A stretch of DNA of 64,000 nucleotides from an uncultured Bacteroidales bacterium (GTDB lineage Bacteria > Bacteroidota > Bacteroidia > Bacteroidales > WCHB1-69). The DNA lies in NCBI GenBank assembly GCA_946409645.1, contig CAMJXE010000004.1, positions 11,420-75,419 on the forward strand, given 5' to 3'. The first letter of the stretch is position 1. Every line of letters starts with the position of its first letter. The translations under genes were made by a program, and so were the position numbers. The notes under the pieces were generated by a model, which had not been told where the DNA came from, did no database searches, and saw only the letters and a list, made by a program, of their open reading frames with translations. This document shows positions 1,546 to 64,000 of the stretch, piece after piece.

Positions 1546-1573
1546 GTAGAGACGCAAATTTCCGCGTCTCTAC
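1546..1573. repeat. GTAG-type REP-like palindrome
   Basis: gtagagacgc-aaatttcc-gcgtctctac; perfect 10-bp arms between convergent rdgB and rimM. Confidence 0.85.
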
Positions 1574-13529: not shown

Positions 13530-13557
13530 GTTGAGACGTAGCGCACAACGTCTCTAC
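13530..13557. repeat. GTAG-type REP-like palindrome
   Basis: gttgagacg-tagcgcacaa-cgtctctac, 7 nt after the ahcY stop. Confidence 0.8.
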
Positions 13558-21221: not shown

Positions 21222-22919
21222 ATGAAACAGTTAATCGAATGTGTTCCTAATTTCAGTGAAGGCAGAAACCAAGACATCATCAACCAAGTGGCCGACGTGA
21301 TTCGTCAGGCAGAAGGCGTGACATTGCTGGATGTGGATCCCGGCGCCACCACCAACCGCACAGTCGTCACCTTCGTGGGCGAACCGCATTATGTGGTCGA
21401 TGCCGCCGTCAAGCTCATCGCCAAGTGCCAAGAACTCATTGACATGCGCAACCACCACGGCGACCATCCGCGCTTCGGTGCCACCGACGTGTGTCCGCTT
21501 GTGCCCATCGCCAACATCACGATGGAAGAGACCGTGGAATATGCCCGCCAGCTGGCTGAAAGAGTCGGCAAGGAGCTGAACATCCCCGTCTATTGCTACG
21601 AGAACGCCGCGTTCAAGCCCGAGCGCCGCAACCTCGCCAACTGCCGCCAGGGTGAGTACGAAGCCCTAAAGGAGCGCATCACTTCCAAGGAGTGGAAGCC
21701 CGACTTCGGCCCCAACAAGTTCACGGAGAGCGTCGCCAAGAGCGGAGCCACGGCCGTGGGCGCCCGCGACTTCCTCATCGCCGTCAACTACAACCTCAAC
21801 ACCACCTCCACGCGCCGCGCCAACGCCATCGCCTTCGACGTGCGCGAAAAGGGCCGTCCGAAACGCGAGGGCAACAAGATCACCGGCAAGAAAGTGCTCG
21901 ACGAGAACGGCAACGTGGTGATGATTCCCGGCACGCTTAAGGGCACCAAGGCCATCGGCTGGTACATTGAGGAATACGGCATCGCCCAAGTCTCGATGAA
22001 CATCACCGACATCAACGCCACCCCGCTACACGTCGCCTTCGATGAGGTGACCGCCAAGGCCGCCAAGCGCGGTATCCGCGTCACCGGCGCCGAAATCGTG
22101 GGTCTCATCCCCAAGAAAGTGCTCATCCAAGCCGGCAAATACTACCTCGCCAAACAGAAACGCTCCCTCGGCATCGACGAGAAGGAGATGGTGAAGATTG
22201 CCGTGAAATCGATGGGTTTGGACGACCTCAAACCCTTCAACCCCGAAGAGAAAGTCATCGAGTATCTGCTTGAGAAAGAGGATACTACGCCAAAGTTGGT
22301 CAATATGACCTGCACCGGTTTCGCCAACGAGACGGCCTCCGAAAGTCCGGCTCCCGGCGGCGGCTCCATCTCCGCCTATATGGGCTCCCTTGGCGCCGCC
22401 CTCGGCACGATGGTCGCCAACCTCTCCTCCCACAAACCCGGCTGGGACGACAAGTGGGCATATTTCTCCGAATGGGCCGAAAAGGGTCAGTTGGTGAAAG
22501 ATCAGCTGCTTGCTCTCGTGGATGAGGACACCAATGCCTTCAACGTGATTATGAACGCGTTCGGAATGCCGAAGGGCACGCCCGAAGAGAAGGAAGCCCG
22601 TTCGCAGGCCATCCAGGACGCCACCAAATACGCCACCGAAGTGCCGATGCGCACCATCGAGACCTCCTTCAAGGTGTTCGAGATCTGCGAAGCGATGATC
22701 AACAAGGGCAACCCCGCCAGCGTCTCTGACGCCGGTGTCGGCGTGCTTTGCGCCCGCGCGGCCGTCCACGGCGCCTACCTCAACGTCAAAATCAACGCCT
22801 CCTCGCTGAAAGACAAGGAGTGGGCCGAGATGATGATCAACAAGGCGCACGACTACGTGGTCAAGGCCGACCAAATCGAACGCCGCCTGATGAAGAAGAC
22901 GGAGAAGGTGATCGGATAG
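21222..22919 (+). CDS. ftcD: Glutamate formimidoyltransferase / formiminotetrahydrofolate cyclodeaminase (fused FTCD)
   Basis: ECVPNFSEGR, HPRFGATDVCP, GARDFLIA(V)N; cyclodeaminase PAPGGGS and SDAGVG. Confidence 0.95.
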   Translation: MKQLIECVPNFSEGRNQDIINQVADVIRQAEGVTLLDVDPGATTNRTVVTFVGEPHYVVDAAVKLIAKCQELIDMRNHHGDHPRFGATDVCPLVPIANITMEETVEYARQLAERVGKELNIPVYCYENAAFKPERRNLANCRQGEYEALKERITSKEWKPDFGPNKFTESVAKSGATAVGARDFLIAVNYNLNTTSTRRANAIAFDVREKGRPKREGNKITGKKVLDENGNVVMIPGTLKGTKAIGWYIEEYGIAQVSMNITDINATPLHVAFDEVTAKAAKRGIRVTGAEIVGLIPKKVLIQAGKYYLAKQKRSLGIDEKEMVKIAVKSMGLDDLKPFNPEEKVIEYLLEKEDTTPKLVNMTCTGFANETASESPAPGGGSISAYMGSLGAALGTMVANLSSHKPGWDDKWAYFSEWAEKGQLVKDQLLALVDEDTNAFNVIMNAFGMPKGTPEEKEARSQAIQDATKYATEVPMRTIETSFKVFEICEAMINKGNPASVSDAGVGVLCARAAVHGAYLNVKINASSLKDKEWAEMMINKAHDYVVKADQIERRLMKKTEKVIG

Positions 22920-22929
22920 TAGAGACATT

Positions 22930-22959
22930 TGTAGAGACGCGCCATGGCGCGTCTCTACA
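22930..22959. repeat. Perfect 30-bp palindrome, GTAG-type REP-like
   Basis: tgtagagacgcgccatggcgcgtctctaca is its own reverse complement; preceded by a half-site gtagagac at 22919-22926. Confidence 0.95.
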
Positions 22960-52577: not shown

Positions 52578-52606
52578 GTAGAGACGCAATTTCATTGCGT
52601 CTCTGC
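52578..52606. repeat. GTAG-type REP-like palindrome
   Basis: gtagagacgcaat-ttc-attgcgtctctgc, 4 nt after the tRNA. Confidence 0.85.
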
Positions 52607-60431: not shown

Positions 60432-62906
60432 CTACTTTTTCATTTTTACGACAGTAATACCAGCGCCGCCCAGCTCTAACATCTCGTCGTGAAACTCCGC
60501 AACCATCTGTCTTTTAGTAAGATACTGTCTTACAACGCTGCGTAAAATACCATTACCTTTACCATGTAAAATTCGTAAATTTTGTATTCCTAACATCTCG
60601 GCCTCGTCCAAATACTCCTCCAGATTATGCACCATCTCTTCGGCACGCTGCCCACGCACATCCAGTGTACTGTTGAAATTGGAGAGTTTTTTGTTGAGGG
60701 CATCGGCTATGGAGCCAGTGTTGAACTGCGACACATGTCCACGCTCTACATTTCGTGCCTCCTTTTTGCTAATTTTGACGAGTTTGTCAAGTTTGGTACG
60801 GAAGTTCACCGAATGGAAGGATATCATTACGTCATTGCCATCGATTTGAGTTACCTCTCCAGCAATCTGTGAATCAGGAAGATATACAGAATCACCCACG
60901 TGGATGGTCTTGTCCATCACCTCCTCAGACGAAGGTTTCCTCTCCACAGGTTTACGTTTGTGGATGGGGATAATTGGCTTCACAGCTTCCGCCTCGGCCT
61001 TTTCCACATTCTCAATTTCCTTTTGCAGCTCCTTCTTGAAAACCTGCACTTCCTGCCGTGCCTTCTTGGTCTTTTCGGTATCGGCCTTCGACTCTTTGAT
61101 TTCGCGAATGGTATTCTCAATAATCTTGTTAGCACTATCTACAATGCTGTTAGCTTGATTCTTAGCTTTAGCCAGGATTTCTTTGCGTTGCTTGTCGAGT
61201 TGCGCGAACTTTTCAGCATATTCGTCAATCATGGTTGCTAATTGGTCATCGGCGGCCCGCACCATCCTGAGTTTCTGCTCAGTTTCGATTTGCGTGATTT
61301 CAATCTCCTCTAATTTCCGTTCGTAATCGATTTGCGCTGTACCAGATTTTTGAATTGCATTGTCAATAATATGCGGATTCAGTCCAATGTGGCGGGCGAT
61401 TTCGTAAGTGAACGAACTGCCCGGTTTACCCATCTTAAGTATGTAAAGTGGAATTAACGCATTGGTGTCGAACAACATAGCACCATTTTCTGCTTCGGGA
61501 TGCGTGTCGGAAAACATCTTCAGATTGCCGTAATGCGTCGTGATGATGCCGAACGCTTTCGTGTCGTAATAGTGCTCCAAAATCGATTCCGCCAACGCGC
61601 CACCCAATGTAGGCTCGGTACCGCTACCGAACTCGTCAATCAGGAACAGCGACTTCGCGTTCAATTGCTCATCCATTACTTTAAGATTCTGCAAATGAGA
61701 ACTATACGTACTCAAATCATTATCTATGGACTGCTCGTCGCCGATATCGATGAAAATGCTGTCGAAGATGCCCATGTCGGAAGTGCTAAGCATGGGGACC
61801 GGCAATCCGCACTGCATCATATATTGCAGTAAACCAACACTTTTCAGGCACACAGACTTACCGCCGGCGTTAGGTCCGGAGATGATCAAAATCCGCTTTT
61901 CGGGGTTCAACTTAATGTCGAGCGGCACCACCTCCTTATGGTTTTTCTTGTAATTGAGATAAAGCAACGGATGCTTCGCTTGATACCACTGTACCAGCGT
62001 TTGGGGGTGGATGTGAGGTACAGAAGCGTCAATATCGATGGCGAAGAGGGCTTTCGCGCGAAGGAAATCGTAGCGACCCATCAGCTTCTGCGCATCCAAG
62101 AGGTCATCAATAAGCGGACGAATGGTGTCGGAAATTTCGGTCAGGATGCGGATAATCTCGCGTTGTTCGGCATTTTGCAGCTCTTTGAGTTCGTTGTTGG
62201 CATCGAAAACCTCGGTAGGCTCGATGAAAACGGTCTGTCCGGTGGCGGACTCGTCGTGTACAAAGCCGCGCAGCCGGCGTTTGAACTGCGCCGAAACGGG
62301 GATACAGAGTCTGCCATTTCGGATGGTCATCTCGGCATCCTCCTTCACGATACCGTCCTGTTTGGCGGCGGAGAGAATCTTGCGAATCTGACGATCGGCG
62401 TCGCGGGAGATGCGGTTGATGGCCCCTTTGATGTGCGCTAACTCGTCGGAGGCGTTGTCGCGCATCTGCCCTTTGTCGTCCATAATGCGGTTGATGGCGG
62501 ACATGAGGTCGCGTTGCAGCGGCATCTCCGCACACATCGACCAGAGCCTTGGATAGCGATTTTCCTCGTGGCGTACCTTGAAATAGACGAAAATCTTGGT
62601 CATCGACTGCACAAAACCGCGCAGACATGCCAATTCGTCCAATTCAATGTAGGTACCGTCGATGCGCAATCGTTTCAGTACCTCGCGAAGGTCGTAGAAA
62701 TCCTGCGCTGGAAAGGGCTCGTCGAAGAGCAGCAGTTGACGGAACTCCTCCACCGACTCCAACGCGGGCATAATCAGCAGCATGTCGGTCATGAACTGCA
62801 TCTGATCCACTGCCTCCGCGCCCTGTGGGCTCAAGCAGTGGGCCAAAATGAGCCGCCGCACTATATCAAAACCTATTTTCTCCTCAAAATTCTCCGGGTA
62901 GAGCAT
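60432..62906 (-). CDS. mutS2: Endonuclease MutS2 (with Smr domain)
   Basis: HDESATGQT, SGPNAGGKS, DEFGSGTEP, TTHY, LDVRG...ILHGKGNG. Confidence 0.96.
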   Translation of the reverse strand: MLYPENFEEKIGFDIVRRLILAHCLSPQGAEAVDQMQFMTDMLLIMPALESVEEFRQLLLFDEPFPAQDFYDLREVLKRLRIDGTYIELDELACLRGFVQSMTKIFVYFKVRHEENRYPRLWSMCAEMPLQRDLMSAINRIMDDKGQMRDNASDELAHIKGAINRISRDADRQIRKILSAAKQDGIVKEDAEMTIRNGRLCIPVSAQFKRRLRGFVHDESATGQTVFIEPTEVFDANNELKELQNAEQREIIRILTEISDTIRPLIDDLLDAQKLMGRYDFLRAKALFAIDIDASVPHIHPQTLVQWYQAKHPLLYLNYKKNHKEVVPLDIKLNPEKRILIISGPNAGGKSVCLKSVGLLQYMMQCGLPVPMLSTSDMGIFDSIFIDIGDEQSIDNDLSTYSSHLQNLKVMDEQLNAKSLFLIDEFGSGTEPTLGGALAESILEHYYDTKAFGIITTHYGNLKMFSDTHPEAENGAMLFDTNALIPLYILKMGKPGSSFTYEIARHIGLNPHIIDNAIQKSGTAQIDYERKLEEIEITQIETEQKLRMVRAADDQLATMIDEYAEKFAQLDKQRKEILAKAKNQANSIVDSANKIIENTIREIKESKADTEKTKKARQEVQVFKKELQKEIENVEKAEAEAVKPIIPIHKRKPVERKPSSEEVMDKTIHVGDSVYLPDSQIAGEVTQIDGNDVMISFHSVNFRTKLDKLVKISKKEARNVERGHVSQFNTGSIADALNKKLSNFNSTLDVRGQRAEEMVHNLEEYLDEAEMLGIQNLRILHGKGNGILRSVVRQYLTKRQMVAEFHDEMLELGGAGITVVKMKK

Positions 62907-62996: not shown

Positions 62997-64000
62997 CTAC
63001 TTCTTTATCACCGCTTTTATCGGATTGATGAACTTGTCCAGCAATCTCAAGTCTTCGGTGATGATTTCCGCCGTGCCTGTCATTTCCTGGCTGAAAGTCA
63101 ACTCCTTACCGTATGTGGTGACCAGATTCTCCGGAAACTCCACCTCAAGCATGTAGGCTTTGGTGTTTTCATCCACCTGCACGGGGACCATCGAGATGTT
63201 CCGTATGCACACCTTGACCATGCCGTATTCCAGATACGGGAAATTGTCCAATTTGACGTTGACGGTCTGCCCGACCTTGACCTTGCCCGCGCCCTGCTGC
63301 GGAAGCAGGATCTTGCCTACCACCTGCGTGTTACCGTCGGGAACCACGGTCACCAACACCTCACCCGCATTCACATTCTGGTTTTTTTGCCAGTACTTGG
63401 TGAACGTGACTTTTCCATCGCATGGGGCAACCAGCAGATAGGTCTGTTCCCATTGTCGTATTTGGGCGGCAAGTTGCTCCTTGGCAGTAGTCAGGGCTGA
63501 TGTCAGCTGCTGTTCTTCGTCAATGCGCTGCTGCTCCAGGTCAAAGATGCTCTGTTCGGATTGCAGGATGCTCATTTGTTGGTTGTCAACACTCATCTTT
63601 GACGATTCAAGGGACGACAGTTGTTGCAGCAGACTGTTTCTTGCCGACTGGTAATCCACCAAGGAAAGTGCCGCATTGCTGTATAGCGTCGAATCAACTT
63701 CGAACAGCTTTTGTGCCGTGGCTAATTGTTTTCTGCTGATGTTCAGCTGGTTGACGGTTTTTTGTAGCAGGTTCTTCTGGGCAGCAATTTGTTTTCGGAT
63801 GACCGCGATTTTGCGATTATGGTAGTCCGTTTCCACAAAATGGCGGTAATCGGTCAGGGCATTGTCGAAGGCGGTGTATGCCGATTGGATTTCCCCCAAT
63901 TGTAGAGACGTGCCATGGCGCGTCTCTACGGCCAACGTATCCAATTCATCCAACATCCGTTTCACCGCCATCACATCCTCCAATTTTGCGGGATTGCGAA
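62997..64000 (-). CDS. HlyD-family secretion adaptor (5' end outside the window)
   Basis: The frame stays open to the window edge (RNPAKLEDV); long coiled coil, LVAPCDG, GKVKVGQ.V.VKL..FPY.EYG, M.G.AEIIT. Confidence 0.92.
   Translation of the reverse strand, partial: RNPAKLEDVMAVKRMLDELDTLAVETRHGTSLQLGEIQSAYTAFDNALTDYRHFVETDYHNRKIAVIRKQIAAQKNLLQKTVNQLNISRKQLATAQKLFEVDSTLYSNAALSLVDYQSARNSLLQQLSSLESSKMSVDNQQMSILQSEQSIFDLEQQRIDEEQQLTSALTTAKEQLAAQIRQWEQTYLLVAPCDGKVTFTKYWQKNQNVNAGEVLVTVVPDGNTQVVGKILLPQQGAGKVKVGQTVNVKLDNFPYLEYGMVKVCIRNISMVPVQVDENTKAYMLEVEFPENLVTTYGKELTFSQEMTGTAEIITEDLRLLDKFINPIKAVIKK
63902..63929. repeat. GTAG-type REP-like palindrome inside the HlyD CDS
   Basis: gtagagacgtgccatggcgcgtctctac, 27/28 identical to 22931-22958. 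Confidence 0.92.

Follow-up and report, generated by a model that had tools for sequence, protein, structure and literature searches.

How does a palindrome that lies free in one part of a bacterial genome come to be read as ten codons of a secretion adaptor gene in another? The question is raised by a window of 64,000 nucleotides (the whole stretch of DNA analyzed here, C4:11420-75419) from a genome of 3.09 Mb in 147 contigs with 48% G+C. A first-pass annotation of this window had noted that a 28-bp palindrome at 22931-22958 recurs, with one mismatch, in an HlyD open reading frame, and had proposed that a mobile-type repeat in a variable loop of a secretion adaptor had become part of the open frame.

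A palindromic repeat in the frame of an HlyD-family gene

The adaptor gene, its repeat copy, and the related sequences of the window are located as follows (window coordinates unless a contig is named).

62997..64000, minus strand: HlyD-family periplasmic adaptor, 3' 333 codons of 440 aa, start at C4:75738
63902..63929: 28-bp palindrome of the GTAGAGAC-N12-GTCTCTAC family inside the HlyD-family gene, plus-strand core GTGCCATGGCGC
63900..63929, minus strand: ten repeat-derived codons, V-E-T-R-H-G-T-S-L-Q, adaptor residues 131-140, sequence read directly
22931..22958: free perfect copy of the same subfamily as the HlyD copy, core GCGCCATGGCGC, 11 bases past a stop codon
22919..22926, plus strand: lone 5' arm GTAGAGAC, its first G completing the TAG stop of the upstream gene
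1546..1573: family member, core GCAAATTTCCGC
13530..13557: family member, one arm degenerate (GTTGAGAC), core GTAGCGCACAAC
52578..52606: family member of 29 nt, core GCAATTTCATTGC

A scan of the window, which holds five family members, located the recurring palindrome, GTAGAGACGTGCCATGGCGCGTCTCTAC, at 63902-63929, one mismatch away from the free copy GTAGAGACGCGCCATGGCGCGTCTCTAC at 22931-22958, as annotated. A chance origin of this 27/28 match had been judged very unlikely, in agreement with 100 dinucleotide shuffles that gave zero matches to the 28-bp palindrome. The translation of the minus-strand ORF (62997..>64000) reads ...LDTLA-VETRHGTSLQ-LGEIQ..., confirming the annotated position of the peptide VETRHGTSLQ directly before LGEIQ, in codons 63929..63900. 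The annotation had also described a removable 30-bp unit at 63901-63930; its excision does leave TLA joined to LGEIQ, but the unit lies one base off these codons.

The host adaptor and its loop

The adaptor gene starts 319 bases beyond the end of the window, and its whole 440-aa frame is free of internal stops; the product contains an HlyD_3 domain (PF13437, E 2.3e-14). The start lies 67 bases from the contig end, and in the present assembly the exporter gene is beyond that end. In the ortholog L022, a 765-aa gene with Peptidase_C39, ABC_membrane, and ABC_tran domains is located upstream of the adaptor and ends 3 nt after the adaptor ORF start. Directly downstream of the adaptor in the window is a MutS2/Smr-type 824-aa gene (60432-62906, minus strand). 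Downstream of the L022 adaptor are instead genes for an alpha/beta hydrolase and for a GDSL-like lipase; conservation thus does not extend to the 3' context of the adaptor.

An AlphaFold model of the adaptor (36-row alignment, mean pLDDT 77.5) shows a membrane helix, beta strands at residues 62-107, a short helix at 113-125, a coil at 126-141 (pLDDT 61-70), and three long helices at 142-294 (pLDDT above 90; the first at 142-164), followed by a beta-barrel. The top fold matches returned by Foldseek were EmrA (4tko, 2e-16), MacA (3fpp), and HlyD (5c22), and MexA and AcrA were also retrieved. The protein resembles the HlyD/EmrA/MacA adaptors in its HlyD_3 domain, N-terminal membrane helix, lipoyl and beta-barrel domains, and long alpha-helical hairpin; it differs from the solved members in that sequence identity is just 12-16%. 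From the coil at 126-141 in the model and the C39-peptidase ABC exporter next to the L022 ortholog, we infer that the repeat-derived residues sit in a predicted disordered loop of a putative peptide-exporter adaptor. Residues 126-141 can be marked accordingly as a permissive loop of this protein.

Structure and copy number of the repeat family

The consensus unit of the family is T-GTAGAGAC-N12-GTCTCTAC-A, with a length of 30 bp. Within five mismatches of the 28-mer, the genome contains 49 copies; when any core is allowed, the pattern of GTAGAGAC, 12 nt, and GTCTCTAC occurs in 110-121 copies over the 3.09 Mb. The 8-bp arms are constant, and the 12-nt core is variable (60 types) yet palindromic, with 27 copies being perfect palindromes and 35 having one mismatched pair. 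The main cores are GCGCCATGGCAC (21 copies, plus 3 that are fully symmetric), GCGATTAATCGC (10 copies), GTTGCGCGCAAC (8 copies), and GCAAAATTTTGC (4 copies). That the single mismatch of the HlyD copy is a defect could be ruled out, since no variant of the family is more frequent than the T/G-asymmetric form (21/110 copies); this single G-T asymmetry is all that distinguishes the two orientations of the repeat. About 58% of the copies have T at -1 and A at +1, and nothing is conserved farther out.

Every canonical copy begins with GTAG and ends with CTAC, i.e. has the 'double foot' form. An inverted-dimer arrangement (REPIN/BIME) was not found, as just 8/110 copies have a neighbor copy within 150 bp; a unit with a double foot could, however, represent a dimer that has collapsed (Quentin et al. 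2018, BMC Genomics 19:475, PMC6006769). The lone arm at 22919-22926 and the copy at 22931-22958 form a half-copy plus full-copy arrangement. An intragenic inverton was not found either: the arms abut the 12-nt core and leave no invertible segment. On both strands, frame 1 of the repeat reads VET...SLQ and frame 3 reads RD....VST, while frame 2 hits TAG. Because the unit measures 30 bp and two of its three frames are stop-free, it causes no frame shift and leaves the frame open in two-thirds of cases.

In a sample of 151 genomes from across the Bacteroidales, 60 contained the family, with cores that are lineage-specific and arms that are unchanged, and the reversed-pattern control gave 0 in every one of the 151 genomes.

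RAYT-like genes associated with the family

The PF01797 (Y1_Tnp) profile missed the candidate transposase of the family; the NCBIfam RayT model NF047646 found three genes in the genome, with scores of 52-55 bits that lie below the 80-bit cut-off of the model.

C24:9036-9608: RAYT-like gene, 187 aa, motifs NHIH, WQ, and YIVTNV, with NF047646 as its best family match (E 5e-14)
C21:21859-22668: RAYT-like gene, motifs NHFH, WQ, and YIRENP, with a low-complexity insert of about 50 residues between HuH and WQ
C122:7163-7597: RAYT-like gene, partial (cut by the contig end), motifs WQ and YIWNNP, internal copy GRDNACVVST

The C24 gene is accompanied by identical GTAGAGACGCGATTAATCGCGTCTCTAC copies (GCGATTAATCGC core) located 103 nt upstream, across the stop codon, and 207 nt further (+780). 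The resulting REPtron extends over C24:8932-9842, and the GTAG foot of the downstream copy contains the TAG stop of the RAYT-like gene. A fourth, internal copy is in frame between NHIH (85) and WQ (153) and reads CRDAINRVST, corresponding to residues 104-113 of the 191-codon stop-to-stop frame, or 100-109 of the 187-aa protein. The C122 gene is preceded by (GN)n and serine-rich runs.

The same REPtron arrangement is found in a relative (G002:C3, L111), there with the CCATGG core of the HlyD-copy subfamily, and likewise in G169:C1; internal copies within the RayT-like gene also occur in G002:C3 and G004:C30. Family copies lie beside or inside further RayT-like genes (L116, L118, L132, L139, and L141; genomes G169, G004, G005, G135, and G073), and coordinates place them by RayT-like genes in G008, G142, G101, and G100. 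In the present assembly, no RAYT was found with CCATGG-core copies on its flanks; the HlyD copy may therefore be a relic that can no longer move. The family is associated with a small clade of putative RAYT-like tyrosine (HUH-Y1) transposases, which, by their motifs, may belong to subclass 2.4.

A PF01797 gene at C2:44902-45207 was considered as the family transposase and rejected. It is an IS200-like Y1 gene with the motif YIENQAEHH (subclass 1.2 of PMC6006769) and a one-base frameshift before YGAFSYS, and the hairpin cluster adjoining it is unrelated. This cluster of about 600 bp (C2:45210-45800) is made of different GC hairpins (TGTCCCGCAGGGACA plus GGTAGAA); in the relatives L077 and L078, the same C2-type cluster units contain the exact word GTCTCTAC. 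The 32 Y1 genes (PF01797) of relatives were also discarded, as all have the Y...Q..HH motif and none is flanked by the family. Family presence correlates with PF01797 hits (56/60 vs 55/91, Fisher p 3.6e-6), a correlation that is probably confounded and was not used.

Genomic placement and other intragenic copies

Genes were mapped with our own rough hexamer model trained on long ORFs, which gave 2475 genes and 87.7% coding sequence. On this rough map, 43 copies have a unidirectional placement, 17 convergent, and 4 divergent; 18 lie over 3' ends, 4 over 5' ends, and 23 are intragenic. The extragenic copies are at a median of 32 nt from the upstream stop versus 84 nt to the next start. This distribution is the classical REP pattern: mainly extragenic, gene-downstream, and rarely divergent. 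The 18 copies overlapping 3' ends (e.g. C14:12333, C17:31718, and C52:1971) supply the last residues or the stop codon of the gene, the latter being the TAG within the GTAG foot.

A strict test, asking for same-frame hexamer coding signal over 150 nt on both sides, was passed by 8-10 of 109 copies versus 57% of random positions, so that genes contain fewer copies than expected by chance, though some do carry them. The intragenic share amounts to about 20% of the copies, and about 14 genes contain some 20 copies that are bordered by Pfam domains on either side. The first-pass annotation had called for a search for further exapted copies, and these show that the HlyD copy is not singular. The Pfam-confirmed hosts, in which copies are found in or between domains, are an alpha-2-macroglobulin (A2M), AcrB (two copies), LpxB, the EPSP synthase AroA (two copies and a degenerate third), thiamin pyrophosphokinase (two copies), Ogt, a THUMP methyltransferase, an ECF-sigma/WG-repeat fusion (three copies), and two T9SS-tail proteins. 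The orientation given by the G-T asymmetry showed no bias relative to transcription (9 vs 11). In the 462-codon ECF-sigma/WG-repeat fusion (C5:18164-19549), all three copies are in the VET..SL frame, and one is located between sigma regions 2 and 4.

AroA (C31:4392-5666) carries repeat-derived peptides in three loops: FVETCHGESLQ, IETQDFASLH, and CRDAARSVSA. Among 120 AroA orthologs (62-96% identity), many cores are found at each loop position, in either open frame, and the loops also include double copies, half copies, and empty-site alleles. One empty/filled pair, from proteins that are 85% identical, was compared at the nucleotide level (TCTG-GG-CAA vs TCTG-TAGAGACGCGATTAATCGCGTCTCTA-CAA); in this pair a clean 30-bp footprint was not found, the filled allele differing by +24 nt and a changed codon.

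The HlyD site across orthologs

An ortholog search retrieved 120 adaptors with 66-100% identity, nearly all of which have VET-xxx-(A/T)SLQ or a recognizable remnant at the HlyD site. The event is not particular to the present genome: nearly all of the orthologs have the hairpin or its remnant, and the HlyD copy is old and common to the whole clade. The core peptides of the orthologs are HGR (49), QNF (32), CHG (11), and others, with at least 15 core types; 67 orthologs have one or two extra 'ASLQN(G/S/D)' units, giving 1-3 SLQ units across the set. At the DNA level, orthologs from species-representative genomes show perfect palindromes with the same arms and the cores GCAAAATTTTGC, GTGCCATGGCGC, or GCACGGCCGTGC, each followed by an 18-bp duplication of the 3' arm.

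Between genes whose 200-bp flanks are 90-97% identical, 6-7 of the 12 core positions differ, with the cores still palindromic, and genes that are merely 74% identical can have one common core. Replacement thus affects the core as one block and does not follow the gene tree; parsimony on a quick ML tree of the ortholog set counted 38 core-type changes. The core at the HlyD site is not always the one most abundant in the genome: G003 has HGR and G004 has AAAATTTT at this site, each present just once in its genome. These two cases rule out that the HlyD core tracks the most abundant core of the genome, and they weaken simple within-genome conversion as the swap mechanism.

Family counts in ten ortholog-bearing genomes are 174, 73, 51, 27, 14, 25, 31, 4, 0, and 0. 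The two genomes with zero family copies (G009 and G010) have an HlyD gene without an intact hairpin; more precisely, the site is decayed in one (G010, L028), and the other (G009, L035) has no repeat-derived sequence. The segment thus decays where the family is absent. Orthologs with 43-64% identity have unrelated sequence at the HlyD site and no VET..SLQ peptide, and neither peptide motif is present in 138 representatives of distant homologs (33-54% identity). A repeat-derived peptide was expected, on the first-pass reading, to be missing where the repeat is missing, and this holds for both the orthologs at or below 64% identity and the family-free genomes. In the 138 distant homologs, the segment between the anchors K120 and G142, which takes in part of helix 113-125, measures 15-46 residues (median 27), compared to 21 in the query. 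Because the loop spans such a range, a 10-aa insertion and a same-length overwrite are both compatible with the data.

In the ortholog L027 of a horse-gut relative (G005:C59:5523-5550), the arms of the HlyD copy are GTACGGAC and GTCCATAC, i.e. both sides are changed and pairing is largely kept. These odd arms do not define a separate subfamily, as this is the sole such copy in 11 genomes. The compensating changes suggest that the palindrome is also maintained locally, e.g. by hairpin-templated correction. In a distant HlyD homolog (P0123), the loop equivalent to 121-141 contains a 40-residue run of PLVHSST-like units, which, judging from its sequence, looks like a different short DNA repeat at the same permissive site in another lineage.

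Origin and persistence of the in-frame copy

The HlyD segment is very probably a 'double-foot' GTAG-type REP that has long been present in frame, is predicted to be translated, and lies in a permissive loop; as a kind of event, it is real but ordinary. The original proposal of a mobile-type repeat that forms part of the open frame in a variable loop of a secretion adaptor is well supported by the family count, the REPtron, the loop, and the C39-exporter neighbor.

We propose single-strand transposition by a RAYT as the way in which the element would have arrived. A copy that inserts at a permissive protein loop would leave the gene open, and hence persist, because the unit is 30 bp long and two of its three frames are free of stops. 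In the PCAT-associated HlyD-family adaptor, the copy would occupy the loop between the short helix and the coiled-coil hairpin and contribute ten neutral residues, with no function for the adaptor assumed. Later replacement of the core could take place if the GTAG/CTAC feet stay substrates for RAYT cleavage and strand transfer; an alternative route would be template switching between copies. The specific idea that RAYT-like transposases exchange double-foot REPs in place, through retained cleavable GTAG/CTAC feet, is tentative, and we consider it rather unlikely. If true, dozens of proteins, some of them essential enzymes, would have in their permissive loops long-lived, ever-changing 10-residue cassettes with an intact frame, and RAYTs would have an activity, the in-situ replacement of REPs, that has not so far been attributed to them.

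Other explanations start from the same observations. The hairpin could be kept for a function, for example if its mRNA structure controlled the pace of translation or the stability of the transcript in the exporter-adaptor operon, and its likeness to the intergenic copies would then reflect a shared host function. A palindrome at one codon position in orthologs down to about 66% identity, an RNA fold of -17.8 kcal/mol for the segment, and the compensating arms of G005, in a copy without relatives in that genome, are consistent with such a role. However, family-free genomes have a decayed site (G010, L028) or one devoid of repeat-derived sequence (G009, L035), and unrelated loops of AroA and other genes behave in the same way. 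In addition, the mRNA strand corresponds to the C-A mismatch form rather than G-U, and orientation is unbiased (9 vs 11). We therefore regard a functional hairpin as improbable. It is similarly hard to credit that the swaps and 18-bp expansions were selected, in the style of a contingency locus, to diversify an exposed periplasmic loop under a pressure such as phage or bacteriocin. Turnover of the same kind is seen in the three loops of the cytoplasmic AroA and in the RAYT gene, neither of which should be under such pressure, and the loop is unconserved and length-variable throughout the adaptor family. What invites this explanation is the presence of at least 15 core types and 1-3 SLQ units among the 120 orthologs, the decoupling of core type from gene phylogeny, and the 38 parsimony changes, although the latter come from a quick tree and strain recombination can inflate such a count.

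An assembly artefact, in the form of a false join at a short repeat or a collapsed repeat placed within the gene, might be suspected in a metagenome-assembled genome of 147 contigs, in which 67 bases separate the gene from a contig end. At usual k-mer sizes, however, a graph error cannot produce a 28-bp repeat that comes back to the same gene in frame. Since more than 100 independently assembled orthologs (ENA, JGI, NCBI, and Logan) show the same architecture, we give misassembly virtually no weight.

Reading the segment as an old, in-frame REP copy has consequences beyond the adaptor. In these uncultured rumen Bacteroidales, the REP/RAYT system has a large-scale influence on protein sequence: about a fifth of the genome copies are predicted to be translated, and the proteins hit include AroA, LpxB, AcrB, and the transposase itself. 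For annotators, VET...SLQ and RD....VST peptides in Bacteroidales proteins are to be taken as repeat-derived loops, not as motifs. For the mobile-DNA field, orthologs with different cores at one codon position represent a natural data set, which could separate in-place REP replacement by RAYTs from template switching between copies.

Comparison with known systems

In-frame palindromes had been attributed mainly to Rickettsia by the first-pass annotation, which proved too narrow: REPs in frame are also known from other organisms, according to the accessible part of one survey (PMC3733652), and the double-foot type is known within RAYT genes (PMC6006769). In that part of the survey (Di Nocera, De Gregorio and Rocco 2013, BMC Genomics 14:522), intragenic GTAG/CGTC REPs are mostly gene-downstream, with a minority in frame in genes of known function, and are judged to be tolerated rather than functional; the top intragenic counts are those of Opitutus terrae and Rickettsia conorii. 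Compared with the portion accessible, the present family is similar in consisting of short palindromes that lie mainly downstream of genes, some of them in frame. It differs in being of the GTAG type, whereas only CGTC-type repeats are given there for Bacteroidetes. Repeated repeat-replacement at one fixed codon position across many orthologs is not described in the same portion of PMC3733652.

The family also resembles the Rickettsia palindromic elements (RPEs), which are selfish palindromes found in frame in many genes, essential ones included, as extra loop residues. RPE-1 has a length of about 100-150 bp, the RPE host is an obligate intracellular alpha-proteobacterium, and we know of no transposase linked to RPEs. 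In contrast, the unit described here has 30 bp and a linked RAYT-like gene, and it comes from a free-living rumen bacterium. RPE-1 is likewise presented as a longer palindromic insertion in the accessible part of PMC3733652.

The family matches the double-foot GTAG REPs of RAYT subclass 2.4 (PMC6006769). This subclass corresponds to Bertels group 4, has the motifs NH[IFV]H, WQ, and YIxNNP, and occurs in Cyanobacteria and Bacteroidetes together with double-foot REPs (5' GT[AG]G and 3' C[TC]AC), which are also found in frame inside the RAYT gene. By description, our family shares both feet on one palindrome, the occurrence in Bacteroidetes, and NH[IFV]H plus WQ; it also shares the REP in frame inside the RAYT gene, located in C24 between the HuH motif and the Y motif. 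It departs from subclass 2.4 in that the best gene copy has YIVTNV instead of YIxNNP (the two other copies have YIRENP and YIWNNP), in that the RayT-model scores are under the cut-off, and in that about a fifth of the repeat copies lie inside other genes. The element, at 28-30 bp, is also short relative to the long REPs of PMC6006769.

A search for the arm sequence and the derived peptides, with partial literature coverage, returned only unrelated primer matches. In summary, REPs in frame (accessible part of PMC3733652) and the double-foot REP type (PMC6006769) are already known. What we did not find described in this partially covered literature, and consider notable, is the long-term turnover at fixed intragenic sites, in which the core of the repeat is replaced as a block.
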